A DNA stretch of 32,000 nt from Edaphobacter aggregans (GCF_003945235.1 NZ_RSDW01000001.1:5250001-5282000), one strand, 5' to 3'. Positions 3,709 through 23,150 are shown, counted from the stretch's first letter. Made by a program: numbers and translations. Notes: generated by a model not told the origin, from the letters alone.

Positions 3709-4049
3709 TGGCACTGAGACTGAGTCCGGTTTCGCGCAACCTGCACGCCAAGGTCACTCTGCTGGGCCTCGAGCTCGAAGACATGCTGTTTCTTGCGATG
3801 GCGTGCGCGATCGCCATGCTGGTTGGGCAATTCTTCTTCTCTGACCGTTACATGTTTTTTCTGCCGATGAACTGGTTCCTGATGCTCATGGTCCTCGTCC
3901 TCGGGGTGCCCAGTCTGATGTTGTTCAAGTATGGGAAACCTCGCGGGTATCTGCTCGACCTGGTGCTCTATTACGGACAAGCGCGCAGCTACTGTGCGCT
4001 GGCCCGCGACACGAAACTTACCAACAGCTTCCTCAAGGAGAACGAATAA
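3708..4049 (+). CDS. virB3: VirB3/TrbD-like small inner-membrane T4SS protein
   Basis: TAATG overlap with the upstream stop. The product is ~113 aa, with a conserved-looking N-terminus (RNLHAKVTLLGLELEDMLFL) followed by two hydrophobic helices. It lies directly upstream of virB4 and overlaps it by 1 nt, the established VirB3-VirB4 synteny. Confidence 0.65.
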   Translation: MALRLSPVSRNLHAKVTLLGLELEDMLFLAMACAIAMLVGQFFFSDRYMFFLPMNWFLMLMVLVLGVPSLMLFKYGKPRGYLLDLVLYYGQARSYCALARDTKLTNSFLKENE

Positions 4050-6802
4050 TGCCCAGGACGACTGCCCAGCATGAGCGCTCCCTCGAAGACCCCGCCGTCT
4101 GCGAACTGCTGAAGATTCGCGACTTTCTCGACAACGTCATGGTTCGCACCGATGGCTGCTACGTCGCCGGCTTTCGCGTGCAAGGCGCAGTAACCTATTT
4201 CTCCGATGACGATGGACGGAATGAGGCGAAAGGCGTCGTTGAATCCTTGCTCCGCGCGATGCCGGAGCAGAGCATGCGTGTGCAATTTCGCTACGAGGTG
4301 GTGGAGAGCCTGAATGGGTTGCTCGATCAGTATCGCGACGCCACGCGATCGGAGACGCCTGAGGCCAGGATTCTCGACGATCGGAGACTTGCGGCATGGG
4401 AGGAGAAAGAAAGGCTGGGCGCCTACTTGTCGCGGATATCCGGTGTGTATTTGATCTGGGATCCGGTGAAGCATAAGCGGGCGATGATCGCCAGCGGCGG
4501 GCCTCAGAGCAAGGATGACCGAAGGCAGGCTGGTGGGAGTTTCACGCTGTCTGTCGGAAAGGCAATTCAGAAGACCAAGAAAGAGCACCTGGACACTCTT
4601 GCCGAGTTTGAGTCGATCATCTCTGGTATTGAGTCGGCGATGAAGAGTGGAGGGCTCGGGCCGGAAAGAATGACCCACGGAGAGATATTTCTGGAGATCA
4701 AGCGCGCATTCAATCCGATGGACCCTGACCTCACACCGCTGAAGGAGAATATCGCTGAGACGCGCGAAATCTCCGCTCGCGAGAGGCTGGCACCGGGGAA
4801 CATCCTGGGGCAAACAGAAACCTATCTCAACATTGATGGGATGCTGTGGACGTTTATCAGCCTCAAGACGCCGCCAGATGGGACCTACCCCGGCATTCTG
4901 CGGGAGTTGATGACGATAGGTTTTCCGATCGTGATCTCGACCCAGGTAGTCGTCCCCGACCAGCGGGTGGTGCTGGATAAATACAAGAAGAAGTTTCGCA
5001 AGATGCAGGCGGCACAAAAGGACTCTAAAGGCAATCTGCGTGTAGACGTCACCGCGCAGGTCGCAACGCAGGAGCTGATACAGATCCAGCAGGAGATTAT
5101 TGCGTCGTCGGTCAAGACCGCGCGAGTGAGCGTAGTCGTTGGAGTGCATACCTCTGCCCCGGCATGGTCTGCTCAACAGTATGAGACGGCGGAGAGAGAG
5201 TTAGCCCATCGCCGACAGCAGATATTGCACGTAGTCGCTCGCATGAACGGAGCTCGCGGGTTTTCGGAGTCATTGGCGACTCGCAGGTTGTTCTTTTCGA
5301 CTCTGCCCGGGCTTGCCGAAGATGACCGCCGTGATCACGATTTGTTGACGCCCCATGCAGCAGATCTCCTGCCGGTCGAGTTGCCTTGGGCCGGAACTAC
5401 GAGGTCGCCTCTGATGCTGTTCGAAACACCCTACCGGCAACTGCTGCCATTTTCGCCGTTTGATCCGAATCTCGAAAATGCTAATGCGATCGTTGCGGCA
5501 ACTTCGGGTACAGGCAAAAGCGTACACGTTGGCAAGATGCTGCTAACGTGCGCGCGACAGGATGTTCAGGTGTCGATCATCGAACGCGGCGATAGCTACT
5601 ATCATCCCGTAACGTTCATGGGCGGCCAGATGATCACTATGTCGCTCGACAGTGAACAGACGATCAATCCGTTTGATCTTGAACCCGGTCAGGTGGAACC
5701 GTCGAACGATCATCTGGCATTTCTGAAGAACCTGACCCGCTTCATGATCGGTGACAGCGGCGAAGGCGACACGGATCTTCTCGACAATCTCATCATGAAC
5801 GCGATTCGCAAGACCTACGCCAGGGCGCAGATGCGCATTGACAATCCTATTCCGCTCTATAGCGACCTCTATGACGAACTGCAGAACTATTACGACGAAG
5901 ACAAGAATCCACGGGTGAACGAGGCTGCGCGAATTGCAGCGGCAAAGATGCGGGCGTGGGTTAACAACGGGATGTATGCACGTCTCTTCGATCGGCCGAC
6001 CACCATCGATATGTCGACGCCGTGGCTCTACTTCAACGTTGAACAACTCAAAGACGATCCGAAGCTCGAAGTCGCCATGAGCTTGCTGATTGCGTACACC
6101 ACCACGAAGCGTGCCCAGGGAAGAGCCAACAAGCGGTGCATCACCGTTCTCGATGAGTGCTGGGCCCTGTTGCAATCGCCAAGTCTCGCGCCGGTTGTCG
6201 TGCAGCTCTTCAGGACAGCCAGGAAACGCAATGCCTGTGTGTGGGGAATATCGCAGGCGGTTGAAGATTTTACCGGGACGCCGGACAAACCAAACGAATT
6301 CGGCGCCGCGATCCTTGCCACCACGGCTGTAAAGATGATCGGGCGACAGAAGGGAAATTACGACGTCTTACGTCAGTTTCTGCACTTGAACGAGACAACT
6401 CTCAATCGAGTGAAGAGTCTGGGGATGACGGAGAAGGGTAAGAAGAGCGAGTTTCTGATTGTGATCGGTGAAAAGGCGGAGACGACGCACAGCCTGTACA
6501 TCGTTCCCACACCGCTCGAATACTGGCTCCTCACAACCTATCCGCGTGAGCGTTGGTACCGGCAGTGGTGGCTTGCTACTAATCCTCATCTAAGCCTGGT
6601 CGAACGCTACGAGGAACTTGCGAACAAGTTTCCCCACGGTCTCTCCGAGCTGCCGGAGCTTCCCGAGGAACGGTCCGGCGAAGTGAGCCGGCTGGGCGAC
6701 CATGCACCCGTGGATACCGGCAAGCGAAGCCCGACGCCGAATGGCGGTGCCACGCGAAACGAAATGCCCGAGTGGTTTGTCCTCGAAGGAGCGACGGTAT
6801 GA
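4049..6802 (+). CDS. virB4: VirB4/TrbE-family T4SS ATPase
   Basis: AAGGAG RBS upstream. Walker A is AATSGTGKS and Walker B is CITVLDECWALL, followed by VWGISQAVEDF. Length (917 aa) and position are typical of VirB4. Confidence 0.93.
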   Translation: MPRTTAQHERSLEDPAVCELLKIRDFLDNVMVRTDGCYVAGFRVQGAVTYFSDDDGRNEAKGVVESLLRAMPEQSMRVQFRYEVVESLNGLLDQYRDATRSETPEARILDDRRLAAWEEKERLGAYLSRISGVYLIWDPVKHKRAMIASGGPQSKDDRRQAGGSFTLSVGKAIQKTKKEHLDTLAEFESIISGIESAMKSGGLGPERMTHGEIFLEIKRAFNPMDPDLTPLKENIAETREISARERLAPGNILGQTETYLNIDGMLWTFISLKTPPDGTYPGILRELMTIGFPIVISTQVVVPDQRVVLDKYKKKFRKMQAAQKDSKGNLRVDVTAQVATQELIQIQQEIIASSVKTARVSVVVGVHTSAPAWSAQQYETAERELAHRRQQILHVVARMNGARGFSESLATRRLFFSTLPGLAEDDRRDHDLLTPHAADLLPVELPWAGTTRSPLMLFETPYRQLLPFSPFDPNLENANAIVAATSGTGKSVHVGKMLLTCARQDVQVSIIERGDSYYHPVTFMGGQMITMSLDSEQTINPFDLEPGQVEPSNDHLAFLKNLTRFMIGDSGEGDTDLLDNLIMNAIRKTYARAQMRIDNPIPLYSDLYDELQNYYDEDKNPRVNEAARIAAAKMRAWVNNGMYARLFDRPTTIDMSTPWLYFNVEQLKDDPKLEVAMSLLIAYTTTKRAQGRANKRCITVLDECWALLQSPSLAPVVVQLFRTARKRNACVWGISQAVEDFTGTPDKPNEFGAAILATTAVKMIGRQKGNYDVLRQFLHLNETTLNRVKSLGMTEKGKKSEFLIVIGEKAETTHSLYIVPTPLEYWLLTTYPRERWYRQWWLATNPHLSLVERYEELANKFPHGLSELPELPEERSGEVSRLGDHAPVDTGKRSPTPNGGATRNEMPEWFVLEGATV

Positions 6803-9467: not shown

Positions 9468-10253
9468 ATGACGATGAGAGCCAGGAGCAAGGTCAAAAAT
9501 GAAACGCCCAGGTTCTATGAGATGGATGGTGCGCTGAGAGCGTATTCCAACCGAAGCATTGTGATCGCCGGGGTGATGGGTGTGGTGTCGTTAGTCGCTG
9601 TCGTCGGCTTTCTATTCGTGCGCATGGAGCCCCCGACCGTGATTAGGGTGAACAGTCAGGGTGAGGCGAGTGTCATCACCCCGTATCGAGCGGCGAAGGC
9701 ACGCTTCTTGCCCTCCGCGCTTGCTGCGAACTCGTCGAATGCTGCTCCAGACGAATACGAGAAAGAAGCCTTCATCAAGAGCTTTCTGGTTCGCTATCTC
9801 GACTACGACCCACACACGCTCTCGCAGAACTGGGCTGATGCGATGAACAAGATGACGACGAACCTGCGGCGCAGCGCCCTTACAACTATGGAGAAGAACG
9901 ATACCGTAGGGAAACTCGAAGAGGAGCAGGGAAGCTCGACCTTCAAACTGAGCCACATCGAACAGAGCAAGGATGACCCGCTGACCTACACAGCATTTGG
10001 TGTGAGGACGGTTCGCAGCATGAACAATGAGCACGAACTCATCAACCAACTGGTCGAGGAATACCACATCCGGCTAATCAACATTGAGCGGTCTGCGGAC
10101 AATCCCGGTGGATTGCTCATCGGCGAGTACTGGTCAAAGCAGATCCAGGGGGAAAAGCGGGATGCAGTCCTCGCCGACAGTACCCTGGGCGGCAGTGCGG
10201 GTAGAGGTAGTGCCTTGCAGCCCGGCATCTCGGATGGAGGAATCAACCAATGA
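9468..10253 (+). CDS. virB8: VirB8/TrbF-like bitopic T4SS protein
   Basis: A purine-rich RBS (GAGAGGAGAGGGAGG) precedes it; an alternative ATG lies at 9474. The N-terminal cytoplasmic segment is followed by a single TM (IVIAGVMGVVSLVAVVGFLFV). The periplasmic domain has VirB8-like features (EKEAFIKSFLVRYLDYD ... NPGGLLIGEYW). Confidence 0.7.
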   Translation: MTMRARSKVKNETPRFYEMDGALRAYSNRSIVIAGVMGVVSLVAVVGFLFVRMEPPTVIRVNSQGEASVITPYRAAKARFLPSALAANSSNAAPDEYEKEAFIKSFLVRYLDYDPHTLSQNWADAMNKMTTNLRRSALTTMEKNDTVGKLEEEQGSSTFKLSHIEQSKDDPLTYTAFGVRTVRSMNNEHELINQLVEEYHIRLINIERSADNPGGLLIGEYWSKQIQGEKRDAVLADSTLGGSAGRGSALQPGISDGGINQ

Positions 10254-10552
10254 ATAGTGAAGCGCGAGTGATGTCGATGTCGCCGGTTCCGGCCAGCGAG
10301 GAGAAGCGGCGGGGGCGGAAGCCGAGCGAAGCGAAGGACAAGGGCCCTTTGATCTTGTTTTTTCTCGCCGAAGGAAGACCGACCAGCGAGCAGATAGTGC
10401 TTAAGGAAAAGTTCGGTTCGGAAGGCGCCGTGATGGTCGAGGCGTTCAAGCGTGGCGAACCCTACTATCGCATCGAAGTGTGGCAGTCACACGCAGTAGT
10501 CAACGATGGAGTTGTAGCAATCGAGAAAGAGCCGGTGAAAATGCAGACCTAA
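10250..10552 (+). CDS. Small hypothetical protein (basic N-terminus)
   Basis: ATGA overlap with the virB8 stop suggests translational coupling. No family recognised, and the true start could be an internal Met. Confidence 0.4.
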   Translation: MNSEARVMSMSPVPASEEKRRGRKPSEAKDKGPLILFFLAEGRPTSEQIVLKEKFGSEGAVMVEAFKRGEPYYRIEVWQSHAVVNDGVVAIEKEPVKMQT

Positions 10553-10651
10553 CACCACCGAGCGGACGAGTTCAGAAAAACCAATCGATAAGTAATGCTT
10601 GCCGATCTGGTTCTCTGAGCCACCTTGCGGGCCTATTCGCAGGGATTCGTT

Positions 10652-10728
10652 CCGCTAACCGGCATGGAAGCCTGGTTAGTTCCCCTCAACAAGCTCGGGA
10701 AAGACCAGGTCAAGCCGGCTTTTAGCGG
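10652..10728 (+). promoter_or_regulatory. 77-nt interrupted hairpin (23 bp paired) in the leader of the polymerase-like gene
   Basis: Four helices are nested. CCGCTAA (10652-58) pairs with TTAGCGG (10722-28). CCGGC (10659-63) pairs with GCCGG (10714-18). CCTGGT (10671-76) pairs with ACCAGG (10704-09). TTCCC (10680-84) pairs with GGGAA (10697-10701). The apical loop is 12 nt. The element ends 44 nt before the ATG at 10773. Confidence 0.6.
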
Positions 10729-10772
10729 ATTGGCATGGTTTCTTCCTGTGCCCAAGCACACGGAGAACTCAC

Positions 10773-13202
10773 ATGCATAGTTATGAAGGAAATCGAATCG
10801 TGATGATCGACATCGATACCAACGGGCGGACGGAAGAGCGCATACCTGGAACCGGTCAGGAATCGTGGCTCGACACAACGCTCCTGGGTGCGATGTATCC
10901 CAATATCCACGTGGCGCTGGTCAGTGTTCCTACCGAACCTCTCGATGATTTCGAAGAGGCTAACGTGGCGAACGCGATGACCGCTGTGTCACACAATGGC
11001 ATTGCCTACAAAATGGTCGGAGCATCAGGATCGGCCAAAAACGGCAAATACTACTACTGTGACGCTGCACATGAGCCTTTGATCGCCAGACGCTTCCAGC
11101 AATGGCCCGAGGCGGCAATCACGTACTTCGGGATCCTGGTGTCCGGCTGCAAAGTCGTACGTAAGGAACCGGAGGCTCGCGTGTCGGTGGTCAGGGATCT
11201 TGAACTTGGAACGAACGATTGCCGCGGCTGGATACGGAGAAGTCTCTTCAGGAAGCTCGCGCTTCCGGAAGGACGTTTCTACCAATTCCGGCTGGCATTC
11301 GGGGAGACCCAAGCGAAAGGCAGCTTCAAAGTCATGGCTGACGACGTTGCCGACGCTCTTGGCGTAGACATCATCGTTCCGGAGAGTTCGATCAAACCCA
11401 GTATGAAGATGCCGTCCGTCCTGGCCAGTTTCGTTGGCCTGGGCTCGCGCACCTTCAAGAGCGAGATCGTTCTGGGAATCCGTGAAATCTCGCGGCCTCT
11501 TCAGTTCGAATCAAGCTATACCGTACTGCAACATGCACCGGTGGAGTCGATCGAGACCGAGATCGTTCCGCAGGCCGTGGAGATGATCGAAACGGTCAAA
11601 ACGGCTTGGAGGGAAGGGAATCACCGCAAGGTGGTTGAGCTCATTGGGCAGGAGGTCCGCCAGAATGACAACTCAGAGGGCGAAGAGTTCCAAAGGGTTG
11701 TCGAAGCGGCGCTCCTGGCTGATGGTTCGGGCGAGATTACACGCCATCCCTACATCCATACGCAGCTCAGTCGTCTGATGGCGAGATGGGCCTACAAGCT
11801 GATGACCGGTGGAGGCATCGAACTACCCGCGTTCGCGCTGGCAGACGATGGCTACCTGGTTCTTCAGAGTGGCAAGGTCCTGTCGCGCGCTGACTGGATG
11901 CCGCTGCGCGCAGCCATTACAACCGTTCCGTCTCAATCAGGCCTATGTGTGCGCTACCCCGTACGCATGAAGGAAGACCTGCTCCCACTTGAGCATCTCA
12001 AAGGGGAAAGGTTGACGGACCACCTGATTGAGAAGCATGGACTCCATCCTGACGTTGCAGCTATGGTTGTGAATGAGCAATTGACGCTTGAAGGGACCTA
12101 TACACTTCATTCGGAGACCGCTAAACGCAATGGCGGTGATTACGACTTTGACTGGGTGTGTGTCATCGATGCAACGCGGTTCCCACGTTTCGTGGAAAGC
12201 CGTTTTCGTATGGATCGCGAACACGAGGTCACGAAGACGAAGGCTGGTAGAGCCAAGTCTCCGTGGTTTTCCCTCGAATTCGTTGCTCTCAAGTCGCGTG
12301 GGAATCAGATCGGCGTCATTACCGACCTGATGAGTTCCTGCGTCGCCAGCGGCCGAGACGACTTGCTCTATGAGCTGGTCGGCGAGTTGCAGCTGGAGAT
12401 CGATTCGCTCAAACACAATACGAATGCCGATCGGAGCAAACTGCGAGGAATCCGTCAGCAGGTTCTTCCGGCGCCCTGGCTTGCTTTGAAAGAGGCCAAG
12501 GCGATCAACGCTCAGGACTTACCACTCTCGCTCGAGATTCTGCCGACGGATCGTATCGGTCGGCTCTACAACATTCTTCGTAAACATATCGAAGAACTGA
12601 TGGAGAAGCCGTTCCCGATCGAGCAGTTCCGCGGCCTGATCACGGGCAACACCGTATCCAACGTCATGTTTGAAGAAGCACGCCTGATCAACACCGTGTA
12701 TGCAGCTGGACACGGCATGATTCAGGGAAAACTCACCCAGGAGAAGAAGGCACATGATCAGGCGACTGTACGAGTGGCCGAGGCCATCCGGTCAGGAAAC
12801 CGGCAGGGTATCGCCGCAGAAAGACGGGCATTCGCAAAAGCGAAGGCTCGTTATCGCCGCGCTCAAGAGCAAGCCCGGGAGACCTCCGCTACCTTGCAGT
12901 CGATCGTTCGTAGTTGGGGCGACGGCAAGGAAATGTACCGGGTGGGCTGGTGCCAGGCGCTCCACACGGTGGTCTCTCGCGGTAAAGGGATGGGATCGAT
13001 TCTGTTCCATGCCTTTCCCCAGGAGGTCGTTGATTCGATTGCAGCCCGCACCGGCGGAATTCGTACGCAAGTCGCGCCTTCCGGAAGAGGAGTGCGTGTT
13101 GCGGTTGAGGGCGACTGCTTGTTCTCTGTTCGTCCGGGCAGGAAGGAGTTCCTGCTTCGGCTGGACCGGGGAGCGAACCGAATCGTTGGGACCGCAAGTT
13201 AA
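10773..13202 (+). CDS. Large protein with an ordered motif series resembling eukaryote-type RNA-dependent RNA polymerases (QDE-1/RDR family, double-psi beta-barrel; DxDxD catalytic loop GGDYDFD)
   Basis: GGAG lies 7 nt upstream of the ATG. Motifs occur in the same order as recalled RDR motifs. TNDCRGWIRRSLFRKL resembles SDGIGKIS..LA. RFYQFRLAFGETQAKGSFKV resembles SAFQIRYGGYKGVV. IIVPESSIKPSMKM resembles LR.SM.KF. IELPAFALADDGYLVLQSGKV resembles RIPV...GV.DE.G.L..GQV. CVRYPVRMKEDLLPLEHL resembles KNP..HPGD.R.LEAV. AKRNGGDYDFDWVCVID resembles SGGDLDGD.YFV.WD. The family assignment is from memory, not from a search. Confidence 0.6.
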   Translation: MHSYEGNRIVMIDIDTNGRTEERIPGTGQESWLDTTLLGAMYPNIHVALVSVPTEPLDDFEEANVANAMTAVSHNGIAYKMVGASGSAKNGKYYYCDAAHEPLIARRFQQWPEAAITYFGILVSGCKVVRKEPEARVSVVRDLELGTNDCRGWIRRSLFRKLALPEGRFYQFRLAFGETQAKGSFKVMADDVADALGVDIIVPESSIKPSMKMPSVLASFVGLGSRTFKSEIVLGIREISRPLQFESSYTVLQHAPVESIETEIVPQAVEMIETVKTAWREGNHRKVVELIGQEVRQNDNSEGEEFQRVVEAALLADGSGEITRHPYIHTQLSRLMARWAYKLMTGGGIELPAFALADDGYLVLQSGKVLSRADWMPLRAAITTVPSQSGLCVRYPVRMKEDLLPLEHLKGERLTDHLIEKHGLHPDVAAMVVNEQLTLEGTYTLHSETAKRNGGDYDFDWVCVIDATRFPRFVESRFRMDREHEVTKTKAGRAKSPWFSLEFVALKSRGNQIGVITDLMSSCVASGRDDLLYELVGELQLEIDSLKHNTNADRSKLRGIRQQVLPAPWLALKEAKAINAQDLPLSLEILPTDRIGRLYNILRKHIEELMEKPFPIEQFRGLITGNTVSNVMFEEARLINTVYAAGHGMIQGKLTQEKKAHDQATVRVAEAIRSGNRQGIAAERRAFAKAKARYRRAQEQARETSATLQSIVRSWGDGKEMYRVGWCQALHTVVSRGKGMGSILFHAFPQEVVDSIAARTGGIRTQVAPSGRGVRVAVEGDCLFSVRPGRKEFLLRLDRGANRIVGTAS

Positions 13203-13334
13203 CTCGTCGGCGCGCTTTAGGGTTCGTCGACAAACAACTGAATAGCCAACCGCCTGGTGGACCAGCAGCCGAATCGTCTGTCCCCCAGGGCAAACATTCG
13301 CCTGCTGCCTGTCCGGGAAGAATGGAGTGATCGG

Positions 13335-13559
13335 ATGCGATTCCTGAATTGGCGCAGAACGAATGGCGGAGTGCGAGTATCCGTCAGGATCCAGCGCACG
13401 CCACAGCAGTGGCTCTTCCAATGGGTAACCATCGGCAAGCGCCGTTACTCGAAACGCGAACTACTTGATATCGAAATGCGAGTCAGGAAGTTCGTAAACC
13501 CAAGGGTCCAGGTTCCCCCTCGAACCCTGGAGACCGAAGCTCACACCATCGTGGTGTGA
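13335..13559 (+). CDS. Small hypothetical basic protein (contains RRYSKRELL motif)
   Basis: The ATG at 13335 follows GGAG by 7 nt; an upstream GTG at 13257 is the alternative start. The 9-aa motif is shared with the ORF at 24390 using different codons, which argues that this frame is translated. Confidence 0.4.
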   Translation: MRFLNWRRTNGGVRVSVRIQRTPQQWLFQWVTIGKRRYSKRELLDIEMRVRKFVNPRVQVPPRTLETEAHTIVV

Positions 13560-13572
13560 ATACAACCTGTGC

Positions 13573-13602
13573 GAAGAGGATGGCCTTCAAGGCATCCTCT
13601 TC
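13573..13602 (+). other. Strong inverted repeat between the small ORF and virB9
   Basis: GAAGAGGATGGCCTT / AAGGCATCCTCTTC gives ~12-14 bp of pairing with one bulged G. There is no downstream T-tract. It lies 14 nt after the stop at 13559 and ends 8 nt before the virB9 RBS (AAGGAGAG, 13611-13618). Confidence 0.6.
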
Positions 13603-13625
13603 CCAGATTCAAGGAGAGCGCCGTC

Positions 13626-14501
13626 ATGCTCATTCAGAAAAATGTTATTGTGCTTAGCATTCTGGGCGGGAGCATGGCGTTTGCCCAGAACATCGTTCAC
13701 CAGCCCGTCAACCCTAACGGCGTTACCCCGGTTCACACGTCGCTCGATCACATCAGCATCCTCCAACTCCCCGAAAAGATCACTCGCGTTGCAGCGGGAA
13801 GCGATGCGATGCAGATCGAATGGCACGATAACAGTGTCTTCATCAAGCCTCTGAAGCAGGGGCAGGCGACCAATCTCATGGTTTGGACCGAGCACCAGTT
13901 CTCAACCTATGAGCTGGAGGCACCAGGTGACGTTCACAGCATGTCCTTTGTCATTGATGAAACAGCAGCCCTGGGTGCTCAAAGCAGTGGGCATTCCGTG
14001 GCAGCAGCGGCTGCAACTCCGTCGCCCCAGGAGATCCAGCGAATAACAGATTCTTCCATCGGGTCTACGCTGCTCGAGGTCACACCGGTCGTCGCTCGCG
14101 GAGTGCGTCCCGTCAAAGACCATGTCAGTGTTCTCATCAAGGAAGTGGTTCGCGACAAGAATTCTCTCTATGTACGGTTTGCCGTCAGCAATACCGGATC
14201 GCATCCATACCGAATTGTCTCGCCCAATGTCTTCACGATCGTTCCAACGAAAAACGCCGAGCTTCTCGCTGGATTGAAGAATCTTCAGATCCCGGAACAG
14301 GGCACCTATCAATTTCAGTCCGGTGAGACCATACAGGTCACGGTGAGGGGTACGGCACTTCCCGAGAAAGATGTGCAACCAGGCGCAACGGTCGAAGGAG
14401 TATTGGCTCTTGAGCCTGCCGACGTGCAAAAGGCCGGGGTGTACGAATTCATCTTCGGGAATGACGGGACCCATCGCATTCTGGCCACGGCGGTGCTCTG
14501 A
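13626..14501 (+). CDS. virB9: VirB9/TrbG/CagX-like periplasmic/outer-membrane T4SS core protein
   Basis: The ATG at 13626 follows AAGGAGAG. Signal peptide MLIQKNVIVLSILGGSMAFAQ. The N-domain matches the recalled VirB9 pattern (TSLDHISILQLPEKITRVAAGSDAMQIEWHDNSVFIKPLKQGQATNLMVWTEHQFSTYELE). The C-terminus is a beta-rich domain. Confidence 0.7.
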   Translation: MLIQKNVIVLSILGGSMAFAQNIVHQPVNPNGVTPVHTSLDHISILQLPEKITRVAAGSDAMQIEWHDNSVFIKPLKQGQATNLMVWTEHQFSTYELEAPGDVHSMSFVIDETAALGAQSSGHSVAAAAATPSPQEIQRITDSSIGSTLLEVTPVVARGVRPVKDHVSVLIKEVVRDKNSLYVRFAVSNTGSHPYRIVSPNVFTIVPTKNAELLAGLKNLQIPEQGTYQFQSGETIQVTVRGTALPEKDVQPGATVEGVLALEPADVQKAGVYEFIFGNDGTHRILATAVL

Positions 14502-14731
14502 TGGCAGAGCTCGAATATCTCTCTCTTGAGGAGGCGCATGCGCGCCTCCTCGTTGCTTATGGCCGAGCTGGCGATGGCGAGTTCCTGGAGACGTTGCGCC
14601 GTCCATTGACTAATCCGATCGCGCAGCGCGATGACAAGGGCAGGCGGAAGATCCACCCTCTTCTTATTGTCGCCGGGATTCTCCTGGCACTCGCCGGCGC
14701 GGCCATGACCTTCTTCAGTTTTCAAAGCTGA
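14501..14731 (+). CDS. Small hypothetical protein with a C-terminal TM helix
   Basis: TGATG overlap with the virB9 stop. The C-terminus IHPLLIVAGILLALAGAAMTFF is hydrophobic. No family recognised. Confidence 0.4.
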   Translation: MAELEYLSLEEAHARLLVAYGRAGDGEFLETLRRPLTNPIAQRDDKGRRKIHPLLIVAGILLALAGAAMTFFSFQS

Positions 14732-14752: not shown

Positions 14753-16492
14753 TTGATACGTGAAGACTCATATCGCCGACACAACGATGCGCAGGATGCC
14801 GTCCTGCTGGCCTGGGTGCTGATCCTTGGGATCTTTGGCATTCTCTATTTCCTCGCCTATGACCGGCTGCATGTGCGGGCAGGCCAGCTGGTCGAATTCA
14901 CTATCTATCCCTTACTGGTCGCAATCTTCCTGTGGGAGCTATTGCGATACAAGGCGACGAAGAGGAACGAAATGGAGGCGACATGGCCTCGTCCGGTTCC
15001 GCATGTCCCACGCTATAAGGAAGACCAGTATCTGAAGGAAGCCTGCAAGCGATCCTCAGTCCTGCTCGGTTACGACATTTTTGGTGAGCCCTTCTATTGG
15101 AGCGATGACACACGCACCATGCAGTCGAATGCTTTTGGCATGACAGGCGCCGGCAAGACCAACCTTCTCGAAACAGTTACCGAACAGGACATCATGCGCG
15201 GTGTCCCTATCATCTTCATCGATGGCAAAGGTGACAAGAAGCTGCTGGCCGAACTGCTTCCTTCAATCGAAGCCGCGGGTCGCATGCAGGACCTACGTGT
15301 GATTGACCCACTGCGGCCGGAGATATCGGCGCGCTACAACCCGTTTTGGGCCCCTGAAGGCAACGCGGAGGAGCACGTTGGCTTTGTCTTCGAGTCCTTC
15401 AACATGGAGAAGGACTTCTTTGAAGGTCACCAGCGCGTCTACCTCGAGAACATCGCGAGGGTATTGCACTACTCCGGCAAGCGCTTCAATTTCCACGATG
15501 TTCTGGTCTGTGCATACGACCAGGCACTGCTCAAAACGCAGATGAGAGTGGCCCTCGACCGTGTTGCGGCCGATTCAAAGATCAGCCGACAGCAGAAGTT
15601 GACGCTGACCATGAGCGTGCGCAACCTGCTCGAATCCTTCGAGGACAAAGAACGGGTCTCGAAGATCCAGGGTTTGATCAACGAAATGATGACGTTCATG
15701 GGCGACGACATGGCCATGATTACCGGGCCCTACGACGAGCTGCTTTCGTTGGACGATGTGATCGACAAAAGACTCATTCTATTCATGAGCTTAAATGTCA
15801 ACGTGAATGAACGGGCAGTGACGGCGCTGGGTCGGATGCTGCTTCAGAATCTGCAATTGATGATCGGCAGACGCTATTCCCGCGCCGAGGAAGGCGAGCA
15901 CCAGCCATTCGTGAGCGTCATTATGGACGAGTTCAGCCCGTTCGCCTACGAGAACTTCGCACACATTTTGCAGACGGCCCGGGGGGCGAACGTCGCCTTT
16001 CTATTCGCTCTCCAAAGCGCACCGCAGCTTCTCCAGGTGGGACGAGGCTTCCGCAATGACGTTGCCAGCGCACCCAATACAACCTTCATGTTGCGTACCA
16101 AGGACGAAGAGACAGCCCAATACTTCCTGAAAGCGAGCGCGCGGGTACGACAGATGCGCCGCAGTATGCGGGTTCAGAAGAAGGGTGTCTTCAACCCTGA
16201 GTTCGAGGAAGGGACCGAAGGAAGCCAGACGGAGATTAAGGACACCCTGGCCCAGGACGAGCACATCAAGAAGATGCCGGTCGGCCAGATGGAAATACTC
16301 ATGACCGATCCGTTTCGCGGCACGATCCATAAGCACTTGCATATTAAGAAGGCTTGCGGCCATTGGCTCTCTCAAGTGCCGATGAACGTGTATCCCAAAC
16401 TCGACAGCGTGGGAGCTGATTCTCATGGGCTCAACCTCAGTTTTCCGGTTCCGGATCTCGAGGAGAAGAGGCAGCGGAGGCGGAGAAAATGA
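14753..16492 (+). CDS. virD4: Type IV coupling protein (VirD4/TraD/TraG-like ATPase)
   Basis: Two N-terminal TM helices. Walker A is FGMTGAGKT and Walker B is FVSVIMDEFSPF, followed by ANVAFLFALQS. The start is a TTG at 14753, 6 nt after GGAG, and this start is uncertain. Confidence 0.8.
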   Translation: MIREDSYRRHNDAQDAVLLAWVLILGIFGILYFLAYDRLHVRAGQLVEFTIYPLLVAIFLWELLRYKATKRNEMEATWPRPVPHVPRYKEDQYLKEACKRSSVLLGYDIFGEPFYWSDDTRTMQSNAFGMTGAGKTNLLETVTEQDIMRGVPIIFIDGKGDKKLLAELLPSIEAAGRMQDLRVIDPLRPEISARYNPFWAPEGNAEEHVGFVFESFNMEKDFFEGHQRVYLENIARVLHYSGKRFNFHDVLVCAYDQALLKTQMRVALDRVAADSKISRQQKLTLTMSVRNLLESFEDKERVSKIQGLINEMMTFMGDDMAMITGPYDELLSLDDVIDKRLILFMSLNVNVNERAVTALGRMLLQNLQLMIGRRYSRAEEGEHQPFVSVIMDEFSPFAYENFAHILQTARGANVAFLFALQSAPQLLQVGRGFRNDVASAPNTTFMLRTKDEETAQYFLKASARVRQMRRSMRVQKKGVFNPEFEEGTEGSQTEIKDTLAQDEHIKKMPVGQMEILMTDPFRGTIHKHLHIKKACGHWLSQVPMNVYPKLDSVGADSHGLNLSFPVPDLEEKRQRRRRK

Positions 16493-17793: not shown

Positions 17794-18669
17794 ATGGGAC
17801 GGTTTAGCGAAGCGATGATCGAAGAATATGAAGGTCAGGTGACGGGCGCCAGTTCGCGGACGACGTACATTCGTTACAGCCAGGAGCGCGATCTCCCGAT
17901 GCTCCTCGCAATCCGAAATGCTACTTTCATGAGCCACGGGCAGCTGTTTGAGCAACTCGTCGCCACGGGAAGCGAAGTATCTCGGCGTGCCTGCAACTGG
18001 AGAATTCAGCGCCTGGTCCAAGCTGGCGTGGTCTCGAAGATGCCGCCACAGCTTCCATACTGTGGCCCCGTTTATACGATTAGCCGGAGCGGTCTGGCGT
18101 GTCTCGAGTCCTGCGGACATGGGTTGATCAGTCTCACATCGGAGTCAAAGTCGCTGGCAAATCCAGCCCAGATTCAGCATTACCTGGAATTGGGAGAGAT
18201 CCAGGCTGCATTTCGGAGGACGAAAATGCTGAAAGAATGGACCGGGGATCTGGAAATACGGTCCATCAATCAGTCGATCGATTTGCCTCTTGCCAAGGAT
18301 TACGACGCAATCGCCGAATTGGAATATGACAATTTTCGGTACCGAATTGCCCTAGAATACGAGCGATCTCTCAAGGCGTCGACACGCTATCAGGAGATCG
18401 TGGCGGCGATCGAGGATGAAGATCAGGTACAACTGCTGGTCTATATGACCTCTTCCATCGACCTTCTCTACCAACTCAAGGCAGAGTTTGAAGAGCAGAG
18501 GTTTCCGATAGTTCTGGTTCCTGCGCGCAGCTTTTGCATGAGCCCGCTGGCGGCGCGCATGTATTCGACCCGCAGTTTAGGAGGCCAGAAAGCAACGATC
18601 GAAGATGTTCTCGGCGCAATTCCCCGGCGAAAGAGAGTGCCTCCCGGTGAGCAGTTCGATCACGAGTGA
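17794..18669 (+). CDS. Replication-relaxation-family-like protein (N-terminal winged-helix, C-terminal nuclease-like core)
   Basis: A GGGAGG RBS precedes it. The N-terminus resembles a wHTH (FMSHGQLFEQLVATGSEVSRRACNWRIQRLVQAGVV). It is followed by HYLELGEIQAAF ... KDYDAIAELEYDNFRYRIALEYERSLK. That resembles the recalled H...PDa...alExD/E pattern of PF13814-type proteins. Assignment is from memory. Confidence 0.5.
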   Translation: MGRFSEAMIEEYEGQVTGASSRTTYIRYSQERDLPMLLAIRNATFMSHGQLFEQLVATGSEVSRRACNWRIQRLVQAGVVSKMPPQLPYCGPVYTISRSGLACLESCGHGLISLTSESKSLANPAQIQHYLELGEIQAAFRRTKMLKEWTGDLEIRSINQSIDLPLAKDYDAIAELEYDNFRYRIALEYERSLKASTRYQEIVAAIEDEDQVQLLVYMTSSIDLLYQLKAEFEEQRFPIVLVPARSFCMSPLAARMYSTRSLGGQKATIEDVLGAIPRRKRVPPGEQFDHE

Positions 18670-19653: not shown

Positions 19654-20727
19654 TCAATGACTACGACGTGGATGCCATGGCACGACATCCTTCTGTTCTT
19701 CCTTCGAGTAGGGCTCACCAAAATATGGGAACTCGGAACGGATTCGATTGCGATCAGGGGCAGCGCCGTCCTGGATGGGCCTGTTTGTCGCTAATGAAAG
19801 CATCACATCCTGAACATCATCACCCAGTGGCCTGCCATTGAATCTCGCGACATCAAATGCAGCTGCTGTTCCCAATTCGTAGGGCAAGGTGGTCGGGCAT
19901 AGTCGAGAGACCATTTGCTTTCCGTATTCTTCCGGTTTCACGGCAGATCCTGCATAAGTAGTCATCTTCTGGGTATAGTCTGCGATGTATCCCGAGAATA
20001 AAGCGATGTCATCTGATGGCACCGATTTGTTGAAGGTCTCTTTCACCTCCTGATTGGCGGGATCGTTAAGAAAGAGATGTGTGATCATCGGCAGGCCCCA
20101 GCGTGACACCTGCATCTCGGGGGCATGGCCGTAAAGTGACACCGTGGCCCAGGCGTGGACCGTTCCCTTGCCGATCAGAAGGTTTGGAACTTCGAGGACA
20201 ATCGCAGTGATATTGCGATTGTTGAAGAAGTTCTGACGGCTGCGCAGGAACGCATCGCCGTCATACCTGTGTTCGTCGTAGAAGGCCTTCTGAAGATTTT
20301 GCATTGCGACAGCGTCGGCGGCGAACAGATCGGGAGCGATTCCGACGAAGGCTCGAATACCAGACTTGCTATGGACCGTGCCCGTATCGCCTTCTATTAG
20401 CAAATCGCCCTTGTCCCCGGCGATAGCCTCACCAGTAGCTCTACGGACCTGAAACTTCTGAACATGGACATGCTCGTCCACGTTCACATGTCTCGGTTCG
20501 TTGAACCTGAACTTGAAGACAACGTCTTCGCGAGCGTCACCAGTGAGATCCAGGCGGAAGGCATACAAACCCTCAATGTGAAGGGTATCCGGTGCAGAAA
20601 GGACAACATCAGGATTGACCGTCATCGCCATCACCGTTGTATCGGGAGCACCCTGAAACAGATAGAAATCACCCACGTTCAGGCTTGGATCCTCTTTCGC
20701 AAGTTTGGTGTCGAAATGATGGGACAT
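19654..20727 (-). CDS. DUF4331-family-like protein
   Basis: GAGAGG lies 5 nt upstream of the ATG. The N-terminus MSHHFDTKLAKEDPSLNVGDFYLF matches the recalled DUF4331 signature (SxHxD...DP..DI.D.Y.F). Confidence 0.55.
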   Translation of the reverse strand: MSHHFDTKLAKEDPSLNVGDFYLFQGAPDTTVMAMTVNPDVVLSAPDTLHIEGLYAFRLDLTGDAREDVVFKFRFNEPRHVNVDEHVHVQKFQVRRATGEAIAGDKGDLLIEGDTGTVHSKSGIRAFVGIAPDLFAADAVAMQNLQKAFYDEHRYDGDAFLRSRQNFFNNRNITAIVLEVPNLLIGKGTVHAWATVSLYGHAPEMQVSRWGLPMITHLFLNDPANQEVKETFNKSVPSDDIALFSGYIADYTQKMTTYAGSAVKPEEYGKQMVSRLCPTTLPYELGTAAAFDVARFNGRPLGDDVQDVMLSLATNRPIQDGAAPDRNRIRSEFPYFGEPYSKEEQKDVVPWHPRRSH

Positions 20728-20748
20728 ACGTTCCTCTCTTCCAATGCG

Positions 20749-21588
20749 TTATTGATGCATATCCGTGTCAACGTCGTCCGTCTGCCCGAACGAAGGGAGG
20801 TAGCGGCCGAAGTTCAATTCGAAGTCGCTCCGAACGCCGTAACCGATATTACGAATCTTGGCACGGCGTGCCTGCGCACTGGGCAAGGCCAACAGTGGAA
20901 AGAACAGGTCGATGCTCGACTGAAGCTCGGCCGCTGTCGGCGTGCCGAACCGATTGACCTGGGCCTTCGCCGCGGCCAGCGTTTCGCGGTCGAAGGAGGC
21001 CAGACGCCGGCCGAGCGCATCGACAAACGAGTCGAGGTCGCCATCGTCCAGCGTGCGGTTCACCCAGCCATAGCGCTCGGCGATATCGGCATCGAAATCG
21101 TCGCCGCTAAGCACGATCTCAAGTGCGCGCGAGCGGCCAACTATGCGCGGGAGCCATTCCAGCGCTCCGCCGCCCGGGACCAGTCCGACGCCAACCTCGG
21201 GGTTGCCGAACACGGCGCTTTGCCGGCTGGCGAAGCGCATGTCGCAGGCCAGCACGAACTCGTTACCGATGCCGCGCGTGCGGCCGCGAATCTTGGCGAT
21301 GCTCACGACTGGCACGGACGAGAGGCGCAGCACAAAGTCGCGCCAAAGGCCCAGCACCTCTGGCCGTTCAGCCGCCTTGGCTACGTCGAGATGGGCGACG
21401 AAAAAATCCGGATTCGCCGACTGGAACACTACGACCTTCACGGACGGGTCCGCCTCAAGGTCGGTCATTAGCGCTCCCAATTCGACGATCGTTGTGGGAA
21501 CAAACATGTTGATCGGGGGGTTGTTGAAGGTGATCGTACACAGACCCGGATAGGTGCGGTCGGTGTTGAACTGCGAGGGGTCAGGCAT
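20749..21588 (-). CDS. Enoyl-CoA hydratase/isomerase (crotonase) family protein
   Basis: AGGAG RBS upstream. Crotonase-fold motifs are present: ITFNNPPINMF, VVVFQSANPDFFVAHLD, GRTRGIGNEFVLACDMRFAS, FGNPEVGVGLVPGGG. Confidence 0.8.
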   Translation of the reverse strand: MPDPSQFNTDRTYPGLCTITFNNPPINMFVPTTIVELGALMTDLEADPSVKVVVFQSANPDFFVAHLDVAKAAERPEVLGLWRDFVLRLSSVPVVSIAKIRGRTRGIGNEFVLACDMRFASRQSAVFGNPEVGVGLVPGGGALEWLPRIVGRSRALEIVLSGDDFDADIAERYGWVNRTLDDGDLDSFVDALGRRLASFDRETLAAAKAQVNRFGTPTAAELQSSIDLFFPLLALPSAQARRAKIRNIGYGVRSDFELNFGRYLPSFGQTDDVDTDMHQ

Positions 21589-21631
21589 GGTGCATCTCCT
21601 ACGTTGCCGGTATAGATCCCGCCTTCTTCAG

Positions 21632-22393
21632 CTAACCGGCGACGAACTGCTGCCCGCCGTCGATGTCGTAGGTCGCGCCGGTGAGGGCTGTGTTGGTCAT
21701 GATGTGTACGGCGAGCGCGGCGACGTCGGCCGGCAAGACGACGCGCCGGATGGGAAGCGTGGCGCGAAGCTGATTGCGGCGGTTGTCGAGCTCATCGCCG
21801 AGGAGCGATGCCGACAACGGTGTATCGACAAAGCCGGCGGCGATAAGGTTGACTCGGACAGGCGCGAGTTCGAGCGCGAGGCTGGCGGTGAGAGCAGGGA
21901 GCGCAGCGGTGACTGTCGGCACGATCCCCATTCCGCTGCCTTGGCGGCGTCCACCGGTGCCGCCCATGAACAGGAGCGTGCCTCCGGGTCTTACCTTGTG
22001 CGCGGCGCTGCGGGCGACCTGGAGCATTTGCAAGAGGTGCGTGTCGAGGCCGCGGCGCGCCTGCTCCATGTCCATGTCGAGAAGGCGCCCGTAATGCGGC
22101 TGTCCGGCTGTCACCATCACATGATCGATCGTGCCGGGCAGGCCACCGAAGAATCGTTCGATCGCAGCAGGATCGTTGGCGTCGAAGGCCGCTGTACTCA
22201 GCGGTTCGAGCTCACCAGCGGCGAGCTCGAGGCGTTCGGGATTCCGGGCGGTGAGGATCAGCGTGGCCCCCTCAGCGCGTGCTCGCCTGGCCGTTTCGAG
22301 CCCAATGCCCGCGCTGCCGCCGACTACAACGACAGTCTGCCCGAGGAGTTCCGGTTCACGCCGGACGGGAACGGTGGTTGTTGCAGTGCTCAT
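21632..22393 (-). CDS. Short-chain dehydrogenase/reductase (SDR) family oxidoreductase
   Basis: I chose the ATG at 22393 (MSTATT...) because GGAGG lies 4 nt upstream of it. The Rossmann motif is VVVVGGSAGIG. The C-terminal IDGG is typical of SDRs. Confidence 0.8.
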   Translation of the reverse strand: MSTATTTVPVRREPELLGQTVVVVGGSAGIGLETARRARAEGATLILTARNPERLELAAGELEPLSTAAFDANDPAAIERFFGGLPGTIDHVMVTAGQPHYGRLLDMDMEQARRGLDTHLLQMLQVARSAAHKVRPGGTLLFMGGTGGRRQGSGMGIVPTVTAALPALTASLALELAPVRVNLIAAGFVDTPLSASLLGDELDNRRNQLRATLPIRRVVLPADVAALAVHIMTNTALTGATYDIDGGQQFVAG

Positions 22394-22463
22394 GATTCCT
22401 CCAGGAACCCGCGATCGAGAGCATCGACGTCCCACCGGGCGATGTCAGCCTCGGTGTGGTCGT

Positions 22464-23150
22464 TTATTGGGGTAACTCCTTGCCAGACTGCTCCGCGATC
22501 ATGTACGCGGCGTACCAGTCTGGCCAGTCCTCGTCGCGATGCCCAAGGAGTTTCTCGTGCTCGCCGTGGGCGGCCTCTGCACGCCGAAACGCGCTCGCCA
22601 GATCGTTCGCCGATGCGAAGGTGGTCGCCGTGTCGTCGATGCGGCCAGGAAGCCGCGTCGTGATTTCCTGGAACAGCCAGCCGTTCCCGTCCGGATCGCG
22701 GAACGAGGCGAATGATCGATAGCTGCCATGCGCTGGATCCGGACCGCTGACTCGGATCCGTCCGAACAGGTAGGGCTCGTCCGTGCCAGCGTAGACGTCG
22801 CCGGCACCATGAAACACCTCGCTGATCTCGACGCCGCGACGAAGCAAATTGTTGCGGGCGGCCTCAATGTCGGAGACGATCAGATAAAGACCCTGAGTGG
22901 AGCCTGGAGCCGCCGCGGTGACGTTCTTGCCGAAGATGACTGAGCACCCAGAGCCAGGCGGCGTTAATTGAATCACGCGATAGTCCTTACCGTTGTCATA
23001 GTCCGCGTCGAGTCGCCACCCGAGCCTCGCATAGAATTCCTTCGCACGGTCGACATCCGAGACGGGGATAACGACGATTTCGAACTTCATGTCGGCGCTC
23101 GCCTGGCTCGTGGCGTCGCTAACCTGGACTTCCGACGTCGCATTTGCCAT
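22464..23150 (-). CDS. VOC (glyoxalase/bleomycin-resistance/dioxygenase) family protein
   Basis: The ATG at 23150 follows AAGGAGGAG. Paired beta-alpha-beta-beta-beta module features are present (FEIVVIPVSDVDRAKEFYARLGW ... ASFRDPDGNGWLFQE). Confidence 0.7.
   Translation of the reverse strand: MANATSEVQVSDATSQASADMKFEIVVIPVSDVDRAKEFYARLGWRLDADYDNGKDYRVIQLTPPGSGCSVIFGKNVTAAAPGSTQGLYLIVSDIEAARNNLLRRGVEISEVFHGAGDVYAGTDEPYLFGRIRVSGPDPAHGSYRSFASFRDPDGNGWLFQEITTRLPGRIDDTATTFASANDLASAFRRAEAAHGEHEKLLGHRDEDWPDWYAAYMIAEQSGKELPQ

Follow-up and report, generated by a model that had tools for sequence, protein, structure and literature searches.

A predicted two-barrel RNA polymerase of the QDE-1/RDR branch, fixed in the type IV secretion operon of an integrative and conjugative element of Terriglobia

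In a stretch of 32,000 nucleotides (nt) from Edaphobacter aggregans (GCF_003945235.1, NZ_RSDW01000001.1:5250001-5282000), which as a whole is called the window here, an open reading frame (ORF) at 10773..13202 on the plus strand, with an ATG start and 809 codons, encodes a protein that is predicted to be a single-chain RNA polymerase (RNAP). According to its structural model it belongs to the superfamily of polymerases built on two double-psi beta-barrels, and within it to the QDE-1/RDR branch of cellular RNA-dependent RNA polymerases (RdRPs). Its gene, which is under purifying selection, belongs firmly to the transfer module, a type IV secretion system (T4SS), of an integrative and conjugative element (ICE) in Terriglobia, and the polymerase has co-evolved vertically with this module. 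Furthermore, the gene is preceded by a structured RNA leader which is predicted to sequester the Shine-Dalgarno (SD) sequence. Our tentative reading, quite possible and still short of probable, is that the single-stranded transfer intermediate serves the enzyme as a template for RNA, which would be used in priming and/or as first transcripts.

The family of this protein escapes direct sequence searches, so that structure prediction and distant family members were needed to establish the link. Not a single Pfam family was matched by the 809 amino acids (aa) even at E <= 10, PF05183 (RdRP) included, and NCBIfam, PHROGs, PADLOC and the PDB sequences gave no match either, whether searched with the single sequence or with the family profiles A1 and A2. 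Hits to SSL10 and to the sigma-70 non-conserved region (E 0.017) were discarded as chance-level. The homologs, at least 1504 clusters at 90% identity, are all listed as 'hypothetical' and without Pfam domains; an exhaustive profile search collected 781 clusters at 50% identity, and E was <= 1e-30 for 224 of these.

An AlphaFold2 model built on 24 homologs (mean predicted local distance difference test score, pLDDT, 81.2; predicted template modelling score, pTM, 0.75) was compared with the PDB by Foldseek. Best were maize RDR2, Thielavia QDE-1 and Arabidopsis RDR2 (entries 7w82, 5fsw_A, 7rqs and 7eu1_M; E 2.5e-13 to 4.6e-11, prob 1.0, query TM score 0.47-0.49, 860-950 aligned columns). Two single-subunit RNAPs from Thermus phages, P32 gp64 and P74 gp62, came next at ~1e-7 and the tail-fused virion RNAP gp96 of P23-45 at 1e-5; the E-values of the cellular RdRPs are some six orders of magnitude below those of the phage transcriptases. 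An earlier note on this DNA had recognised an RdRP-type enzyme from motifs alone, and the ranking, with RDR2 and QDE-1 first and phage RNAPs next, bears this out. All remaining PDB matches had E > 0.07, isolated double-psi barrels included, with the beta' subunit of multisubunit RNAP at E > 0.2. Among the predicted viral structures of BFVD, phage proteins named 'RNA-dependent RNA polymerase' ranked best (3.7e-14 and 3.5e-11), with further matches to P23-45 gp64 and to proteins of crAss-like phages. The resemblance to cellular RdRPs is not limited to the barrels, since the N-terminal module modelled alone (AlphaFold2, pLDDT 77) again matched RDR2 and QDE-1, if weakly (best ZmRDR2 7w88 with E 0.03, prob 0.93 and query TM score 0.51, then 7w82 and QDE-1 2j7n_B).

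On the side of sequence, the connection runs through distant members. The A1 family profile reaches a branch of ~25% identity (P0241-P0268, among them P0241, P0244, P0252, P0256, P0258 and P0263) at E 1e-42 to 1e-47, and PF05183 was matched by seven of the 18 distant and family members tested, one of them above gathering score. This was P0263 with 31.5 bits (gathering score 23.8; E 1e-7), whose aa 69-327 align to PF05183 positions 50-335; P0252 reached 23.6 bits, with aa 341-493 aligned to 382-539, and aa 407-431 of P0258, which hold GDFDGD, align to 434-457. The segments of the hidden Markov model (HMM) matched by these relatives span both barrels, the G-D-F-D-G-D stretch included. Such a sequence bridge confirms the family predicted from structure. 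The membership in PF05183 that had been suggested for the window protein holds by way of its distant relatives, of which P0263 passes the threshold, and not by a match of its own.

A marginal match (E 0.017) was also seen between the family profile at polymerase aa ~604-689 (~12582-12840) and residues 184-270 of the sigma-70 fragment 1sig_A. This region is part of a long helical hairpin (H630-718), and the match is probably due to compositional or coiled-coil bias.

The modules and motif peptides of the polymerase are listed below; all peptides quoted in the earlier note were recovered in the 809-aa translation, and in the same order.

10773..11177, plus strand: N-terminal module (aa 1-135), like the N-terminal part of cellular RdRPs
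11190..11492, plus strand: first catalytic barrel region, beta-subunit-like, boundaries approximate
11821..12170, plus strand: second catalytic barrel region, beta'-subunit-like, boundaries approximate
aa 147-162: motif peptide TNDCRGWIRRSLFRKL
aa 170-187: motif peptide YQFRLAFGETQAKGSFKV
aa 205-212: motif peptide SIKPSMKM
aa 356-369: motif peptide LADDGYLVLQSGKV
aa 393-409: motif peptide VRYPVRMKEDLLPLEHL
aa 453-466: motif peptide NGGDYDFDWVCVID
aa 787-803: C-terminal peptide RPGRKEFLLRLDRGANR

Invariance was read from two alignments, A1 with 24 homologs to 48% identity and A2 with 18 sequences of 25-65% identity. The invariants of the first barrel are T147-x-D149, Q171-x-R173, K182-G183 and P203-x-S205-x-x-K208, those of the second R394-x-P396 (nt 11952-11960) and G455-D456-x-D458-x-D460, the D-x-D-x-D of which occupies nt 12138-12152. 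The motifs go well beyond a chance resemblance: the positions of G-D-x-D-x-D, R-x-P, Q-x-R...K-G and T-x-D are unvarying in both alignments, and T147, D149, Q171, R173, K182-G183, P203, S205, K208, R394, P396, G455, D456, D458 and D460 are among the just 24 invariant columns of A2. In addition, all 134 full-length homologs have the D-x-D-x-D (133 as G-G-D-x-D-x-D, one as C-G-D-G-D-G-D), so that the aspartates earlier taken for a metal loop are invariant wherever they were followed; several distant members possess D-Y-D-G-D, identical to QDE-1. Eight residues are common to all two-barrel polymerases, in QDE-1 D709, R738, K743, R962, P964 and D1007/D1009/D1011 (Ruprich-Robert & Thuriaux, PMC2919709), and D149, R173, K182, R394, P396 and D456/458/460 match them in kind and order. 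Because the universal catalytic residues and the D-x-D-x-D are kept across the family, a degenerate, purely structural protein is ruled out. The active site is predicted to be intact and catalytically competent.

The polymerase is present in at least 459 species-level genomes, almost all of them from Terriglobia, as a scan of one genome per GTDB species gave 459 loci, the best 80 of which were inspected. Almost all of these (78/80) belong to Acidobacteriota, mostly Terriglobia, and Acidobacteriaceae, Granulicella, Edaphobacter, Terracidiphilus, Silvibacterium, Ca. Angelobacter, Ca. Sulfotelmatobacter and Ca. Acidoferrum are among the taxa. Many loci lie within contigs of 0.3-4.8 Mb, and the element is therefore integrated and not a plasmid. 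Wherever the flank suffices, tblastn showed one order in the 80 loci: VirB4, three ORFs, VirB8, a small ORF, the polymerase, (a small ORF), VirB9 and the type IV coupling protein (T4CP), followed by a coiled-coil protein, an ORF and a Replication-relaxation family (Replic_Relax) protein. A VirB8-like gene is syntenic in 74 of the 80 loci, a VirB9-like one in 73 and Replic_Relax in 62; in 42 a primase of the archaeo-eukaryotic type (AEP) follows downstream within 10 kb. The polymerase is 45-50% identical in the most divergent of these loci, VirB8 ~44%, VirB4 and T4CP 52-55% and VirB9 28-30%; since its identity is comparable to that of the T4SS proteins, it evolves as a core component of the machine and not as cargo.

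The T4SS gene cluster also houses the polymerase in four remote metagenomic homologs. P0143 (32%) keeps the order VirB8, ORF, polymerase, CagX, P0139 (35%) has T4CP downstream of the polymerase, and P0146 (33%) has AEP-TOTE, CagX and T4CP downstream. Given by locus, L085, with a 32%-identical homolog, shows VirB8 upstream and CagX downstream, and L090 CagX downstream with AEP-TOTE present. The linkage of homologs to conjugation genes that had been anticipated is strict in the 80 loci and is found again at 32-35% identity. The branch of ~25% identity lies without T4SS linkage. P0263 adjoins a serine recombinase (L081 138-3490 among the distant-member contexts), and P0258 from Calditrichia (L087 7427-18237) resides in an integrase-bounded element with DUF5131, DUF932, a PD-(D/E)XK nuclease, a family-A DNA polymerase and an SNF2 helicase. 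Furthermore, 13 cyanobacterial plasmids carry 22-30%-identical homologs amid methylase, helicase and defence genes; on two of them (L091, L092) the neighbours are a Rho-N-domain protein, an N6-methylase, a DEAD-box helicase, a TIR protein and Hachiman. Contexts of this kind match those already described for bacterial RdRP-like proteins (PMC3417536, PMC2919709, PMC7824862). A tblastn search of 50,697 phage records found no polymerase homolog. The nearest annotated plasmid T4SSs are on plasmids without the polymerase, and their VirB4 matches (24-26% identical) are too remote for its acquisition to be dated from sister plasmid systems.

Two of the 80 loci, L020 and L078, are labelled as Acetobacteraceae and Ca. 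Dormibacterota metagenome-assembled genomes, and their elements are typical of Terriglobia clades. The labels are either a binning error or a real transfer of the element between phyla.

The assigned genes of the window around the polymerase, with the family matches on which they rest, are the following:

72-1079, plus strand: TrbI/VirB10-like T4SS gene (PF03743, E 7e-8)
4049-6802, plus strand: VirB4/TraC-type T4SS ATPase (PF19044 1.8e-23, plus PF12846, PF11130)
9468-10253, plus strand: VirB8-like T4SS gene, upstream (PF04335, E 1.5e-4, weak and under gathering score)
10250-10552, plus strand: 100-aa ORF without assigned family, directly 5' of the leader
13257-13559, plus strand: basic 100-aa ORF without assigned family, directly 3' of the polymerase gene
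13569-14501, plus strand: CagX/VirB9-like T4SS gene, downstream (PF03524, E 1e-6)
14753-16492, plus strand: T4CP, VirD4/TraG-like (PF02534, PF12696, PF10412)
17794-18669, plus strand: Replic_Relax protein (PF13814, E 1.5e-4, weak)
24951-25958, plus strand: AEP/PrimPol-type primase-polymerase (PF22548 AEP-TOTE 2.3e-27; PADLOC PrimPol 7e-21)
26896-27354, plus strand: SSB, the single-stranded DNA-binding protein (PF00436, 8.8e-32)
27488-28399, plus strand: Rad52-family annealing protein (PF04098, 5e-10)

The polymerase gene had been described as inserted between virB8 and virB9. Both T4SS genes do flank it, neither of them directly, as the 100-aa ORFs intervene. The spacer towards the virB8-like gene consists of the ORF at 10250-10552, which has a 4-nt overlap with the stop codon of the virB8-like gene, and of a 220-nt non-coding gap. 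Relatives of this ORF are traceable to ~28% identity and were found by tblastn in 53 of the 80 loci. The ORF on the other side is extremely R/K-rich and fast-diverging, with tblastn matches in the closer loci only (26/80). Family searches gave no match for either of the two, and either could be a candidate partner of the polymerase which they bracket together with its leader. The polymerase itself has no signal peptide and no transmembrane segment, in contrast to its VirB6-, VirB8- and VirB9-like neighbours, and is predicted to be a cytoplasmic protein. The Replic_Relax protein is a candidate DNA-processing protein of the element, and the AEP/PrimPol-type protein a candidate for a conventional primase that the element already owns. 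SSB, the Rad52-family annealase and SRAP make up its genes for the handling of single-stranded DNA (ssDNA).

The 220-nt gap in front of the gene (10553-10772) is conserved beyond the flanking genes, with a mean column identity of 76% in loci whose polymerases are 63-95% identical. Its predicted structural elements are:

10560..10658, plus strand: leader domain 1, a three-way junction (minimum free energy (MFE) fold, covariation and covariance model)
~10561-10569/10647-10656 (P1), 10570-10620 (P2, a long hairpin) and 10623-10644 (P3, a hairpin), plus strand: helices of domain 1
10658..10718, plus strand: leader domain 2, CCGGC...GCCGG around CCUGGU...ACCAGG (MFE structure)
10740..10768, plus strand: SD-sequestering hairpin, in which the anti-SD UUCUUCC (10740-10746) pairs with the SD GGAG (10762-10765)

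Domain 1 is followed by a conserved linker, CU(A/G)ACC. The CUGGC/GCCAG helix of domain 2 is kept in the distant clade; the innermost stem of this domain shifts register between clades, is less certain and was excluded from the model. On the plus strand, 10560-10720 folds with an MFE of -71.3 kcal/mol and a z of -5.6 against dinucleotide shuffles, compared with a z of -3.2 for the minus strand. In alignment A5 (12 sequences) 94.5% of the pair cells are canonical, against 30-51% with slid partners; four pairs are doubly changed, and two of 500 shuffles exceeded the covariation score. The clade of 45-55% identity was aligned alone (A8, 29 sequences) and has 98.1% of its cells paired, against 28-43% when slid, with none of 500 shuffles reaching the covariation score and with compensatory series such as CG 14/UA 11/UG 4 and AU 11/GC 9/GU 8. 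Its helix sequences differ, its linker is invariant, and the same architecture was recovered independently. Many G-U pairs and A-U -> G-U -> G-C transitions are valid on the sense strand only. A joint MAFFT alignment of the two leader types misaligned the helices and was dropped, which is why the two clades were treated as independent data sets; in the 3' half of A3, the RNAalifold pairing (111-119/130-138) likewise gave way to the MFE-supported nesting of CCGGC/GCCGG and CCUGGU/ACCAGG.

The covariance model R1 finds the element as a single copy per locus, always on the plus strand and at the same position, in the clades of at least 63% identity (E 1e-13 to 1e-24), and gives weak matches at this position in five more distant loci. 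In L001-L080 it is located about 170-260 nt upstream of the polymerase start. For the SD GGAG, the probability of being paired was predicted as 1.0 in the window and as 0.96 on average over 54 loci of both leader types, where the SD is always predicted to pair with an upstream CUCC-type anti-SD; the remote loci L084-L086 have analogous anti-SD/SD pairs in gaps of 330-540 nt. In Rfam the leader matched no family at the gathering score, nor at E <= 10. It is most simply read as a cis-regulatory leader that resembles a riboswitch or responds to a protein or an RNA, possibly by autoregulation, and that would hold the polymerase untranslated while the neighbouring T4SS genes are expressed. The element may instead be an ssDNA promoter or a template or partner RNA. 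An origin of transfer (oriT) or ssDNA origin was ranked below an mRNA leader because the SD/anti-SD hairpin abuts the element, which lies on the sense strand in mid-operon and evolved through G-U intermediates. Translational riboswitches and autoregulatory leaders are built alike, with a multi-helix domain and then an SD-sequestering hairpin on the sense strand directly 5' of the ORF. The present leader differs from them in that it is inside the operon and not at its 5' end, and in that it is without an Rfam family; it is a candidate for a new class of regulatory RNA.

Conjugation delivers ssDNA that needs priming and expression, and the transfer regions of some plasmids contain genes for primases that are passed on to the recipient cell. 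In our proposal the polymerase would be transcribed along with the mating-pair-formation genes, its translation being gated separately by the SD-sequestering leader. During transfer it would use single-stranded nucleic acid as template, most plausibly the ssDNA transfer intermediate, in a promoter-independent de novo RNA synthesis like that of QDE-1 on ssDNA. The RNA product might prime the complementary strand and/or give the first transcripts of the element before it becomes double-stranded. The enzyme would then correspond in function, without homology, to the conjugative primases Sog and TraC, and would also be an analogue of those RNAPs of the same fold which phages bring in along with their DNA. 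QDE-1 has been described to synthesise RNA strongly and de novo on ssDNA as well as on RNA (PMC9508822), RdRP-like enzymes from selfish elements have been proposed to act as primases (PMC3417536), and P23-45 gp96 and crAss gp66 are two-barrel RNAPs delivered with the phage DNA (PMC10770324). In this scheme we infer the template (ssDNA, not RNA or double-stranded DNA (dsDNA)), the use of the product, the donor or the recipient as the site, and any translocation by the T4SS.

Several points weigh against this proposal. The characterised prokaryotic relatives YonO, P23-45 gp64 and gp96 and crAss gp66 are all promoter-directed DNA-dependent transcriptases and not primases (PMC5467207; PMC10770324). 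A second priming enzyme is not obviously needed, because the element encodes a candidate of the AEP/PrimPol type, and the structured RNA beside the gene would also agree with RNA as the template. No Pfam threshold is reached by the window protein itself, its link to PF05183 being transitive and structural, and the residue equivalences rest on motif order and on HMM alignments of relatives, not on an inspected superposition. Regarding delivery, the Arg-rich C-terminus that had been likened to a T4SS translocation signal is not conserved: the last 30 residues have a mean net charge of -0.14 over 134 homologs, the tail carries -1 to -3 in the largest clade, and positive charge is clade-specific. 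With a tail that in the largest clade is acidic and that is part of a folded beta module, the argument for a C-terminal translocation signal fails, and no other secretion signal was found in the polymerase.

Translocation of the polymerase by the T4SS is a pure hypothesis, with which the lack of this one type of signal would still be compatible. If it occurred, the polymerase would be made together with the mating apparatus, derepressed at transfer and carried through the T4SS with or right after the strand. In the recipient it would copy the incoming ssDNA without recourse to host primase or RNAP, whereby the complementary strand would be primed and/or the first establishment genes expressed. 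The leader would in this case sense a transfer-linked signal or the enzyme itself. The delivery of phage virion RNAPs, which are made late and brought into the next cell, provides a logic that fits a polymerase co-expressed with a transfer apparatus; taken as a whole we consider this extension unlikely.

Among the other explanations, an element-specific transcriptase like YonO or gp64 is rather unlikely. It would act from its own promoters on dsDNA of the element, either in the donor or, once the second strand is made, in the new host, and would transcribe transfer or establishment genes with no need of host RNAP or sigma factors. In its favour, all biochemically characterised prokaryotic single-chain two-barrel enzymes are promoter-specific DNA-dependent RNAPs (PMC5467207; PMC10770324), gp64/gp62 and gp96 are among the Foldseek matches, the element already has its AEP primase, sigma-70-like promoters in the 19.7-kb transfer region number 3 where shuffles lead to an expectation of 8.6, and three 38-nt direct repeats are located just before the long T4SS operon. 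However, the best structural matches are cellular RdRPs and not gp64, the 50,697 phage records contain no tblastn-detectable homolog, and a place in mid-operon behind an SD-sequestering leader is unexpected for a polymerase that transcribes this very T4SS operon. Furthermore, no motif is repeated upstream of several operons, as an element-specific promoter should be, which is weak negative evidence, and the 38-nt repeat is confined to a single site and to the closest relatives. The scans of the transfer region for sigma-70 promoters and terminators gave results at or below chance.

Still less probable, and in our view quite doubtful, is an RNA-templated polymerase acting with the adjacent structured RNA or with transcripts of the element, a bacterial counterpart of the eukaryotic RdRP role. 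It would produce dsRNA or antisense RNA or extend the leader RNA at its 3' end, thereby regulating transfer, entry exclusion or inter-element conflict. The closest structures, RDR2 and QDE-1, copy RNA, the Pfam family that was reached is RdRP, and a conserved, covarying sense-strand element of ~160-210 nt is always found immediately 5' of the gene; pairs of a polymerase and a non-coding RNA, such as retrons, resemble this arrangement. Yet the element ends in a classical SD-sequestering hairpin abutting the start codon, which makes a cis-regulatory leader simpler than a separate template RNA, family scans of the window proteins revealed no Argonaute and no Dicer-like RNase III, the polymerase matches no PADLOC defence model, and RNA-mediated systems of such a type are unknown in bacteria (PMC2919709). 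An anti-defence, exclusion or other accessory function that hitch-hikes in the T4SS operon, with no part in transfer or establishment, would agree with the distant homologs of cyanobacterial plasmids and integrase-bounded elements, which adjoin Hachiman HamA, TIR, PD-(D/E)XK and SNF2 and not T4SS genes, and with the association with selfish elements noted earlier (PMC3417536). Cargo is normally variable, however, whereas the polymerase keeps its position in every locus examined (32-95% identity) and is conserved like core T4SS proteins, the variable cargo of the element being elsewhere (19654-23186); we hold this explanation to be improbable. Hardly credible at all is a protein without catalytic activity that serves the secretion machine as a structural part or scaffold, or an artefact of annotation. 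The absence of a direct match in Pfam, NCBIfam, PHROGs, PADLOC and PDB sequences would be in keeping with it, and against it stand eight universal catalytic residues invariant across the family, the lack of membrane or secretion features, the at least 1504 full-length homologs, and the confident fold.

The three 38-nt direct repeats (1208-1245, 1288-1325 and 1369-1406; spacing 80-81 nt) have the core GTGTACTTCACTTTTGTAAC, preceded by AGAGAAAAAA, and lie in the 540-nt gap from the TrbI-like gene to the long T4SS operon. The triple array is also present in the closest relative, L032, while L002 has one copy and the core is absent (<= 4 mismatches) from more distant loci. They could be iteron-like operators, tandem promoters or a part of oriT.

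Compared with known systems, the closest likeness is that to QDE-1 and plant RDR2 (PF05183), with a single chain, two double-psi barrels, a full-length structural match (E ~1e-13) and the same ordered eight active-site residues, [DG]-D-[YF]-D-x-D included; QDE-1 copies ssDNA and RNA and initiates de novo (PMC9508822). In contrast to these, the window protein is a bacterial protein of ~810 aa, 11-14% identical to them, in a T4SS operon, without RNA interference (RNAi) partners in the window and preceded by a regulatory leader. RdRP-like/YonO-like polymerases of selfish elements were reportedly described by Iyer, Koonin and Aravind in 2003 and by Iyer and Aravind in 2012, and also by Ruprich-Robert and Thuriaux in 2010. 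Those found in selfish elements of bacteria, on cyanobacterial plasmids and in phages of Firmicutes belong to the same superfamily branch (PMC3417536, PMC2919709, PMC7824862); they are encoded by mobile elements, a primase role has been proposed for them, and the distant branch found here has such contexts. The accessible part of these descriptions gives contexts associated with DNase, RNase H or phages, and not a T4SS core gene, an Acidobacteriota clade or a leader.

The phage two-barrel RNAPs, P23-45 gp64 (non-virion) and gp96 (tail-fused, virion), phi14:2 gp66 (crAss-like) and SPbeta YonO, have the same fold (Foldseek 1e-7 to 1e-5) and are likewise a mobile element's enzyme for its own use, the virion forms being made late and delivered with the DNA. 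Unlike these promoter-specific dsDNA transcriptases, the present enzyme is structurally nearer to RdRPs and encoded in a conjugative element. An assignment as YonO-like fails by context (T4SS/ICE) and by sequence (phage tblastn, PHROGs), the similarity being at the level of the fold only. ColIb-P9 Sog and RP4 TraC are also encoded in the transfer region, and the polymerase would solve the same problem of RNA priming on incoming ssDNA. However, their fold is of the DnaG/TOPRIM type and not of double-psi barrels, and translocation is established for Sog and TraC. The polymerase is not homologous to conjugative primases and is a functional analogue at most.

We know of no characterised conjugation system that carries a single-chain polymerase of the RdRP type. 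To our knowledge, priming and expression of the incoming strand are understood for a few plasmids only, through host RNAP on ssDNA promoters and transferred DnaG-type primases. If the proposal is true, an RdRP-type polymerase fixed in the transfer operon in hundreds of species of soil Acidobacteriota would represent a third solution. RdRP-like polymerases in bacterial selfish elements are already known from computational work (PMC3417536, PMC2919709). Iyer & Aravind 2012 aside, the literature searched contains no description of a two-barrel polymerase clade fixed inside a T4SS operon and no account of its abundance in Terriglobia, of the RDR-like structure or of the SD-sequestering leader. The 'biological role remains an enigma' for the bacterial RdRP-like proteins (PMC2919709), and the T4SS linkage supplies them with a concrete and abundant genetic context. 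A structure nearer to eukaryotic RDR2 and QDE-1 than to phage transcriptases bears on the origin of the RNAi polymerase. Should delivery by the T4SS prove true, the enzyme would be a new class of conjugation protein, corresponding in conjugation to the two-barrel RNAPs that crAss-like and P23-45-like phages package in their virions, and would give a living bacterial context to the ssDNA/ssRNA-copying lineage thought to be ancestral to the eukaryotic RNAi RdRPs. Terriglobia are dominant soil bacteria, and as far as we know almost none of their mobile genetics has been characterised; the polymerase-bearing element appears to be among their commonest ICEs.

Beyond the transfer region and ~5 kb of opposite-strand cargo, 24951-29962 forms a second conserved module with AEP-TOTE/PrimPol, an overlapping 266-aa ORF, SSB, the Rad52-family annealase and SRAP, an abasic-site/ssDNA protein encoded on the opposite strand. 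Between the transfer and the replication/recombination modules a cargo block is inserted on the minus strand (19654-23186), which encodes a DUF4331 protein, an enoyl-CoA hydratase and a glyoxalase-family protein. Its G+C content is raised (0.64 at 21-23 kb vs ~0.55), and most related loci are without cargo at this place. A strong 11-bp GC-rich hairpin, TGAGGAGGCGCATGCGCGCCTCCTCG, is located at 14527-14552 on the plus strand between the VirB9-like and coupling-protein genes. It lies inside a possible 76-aa ORF (14501-14731), has a weak T tract and may be an attenuator or a processing site.

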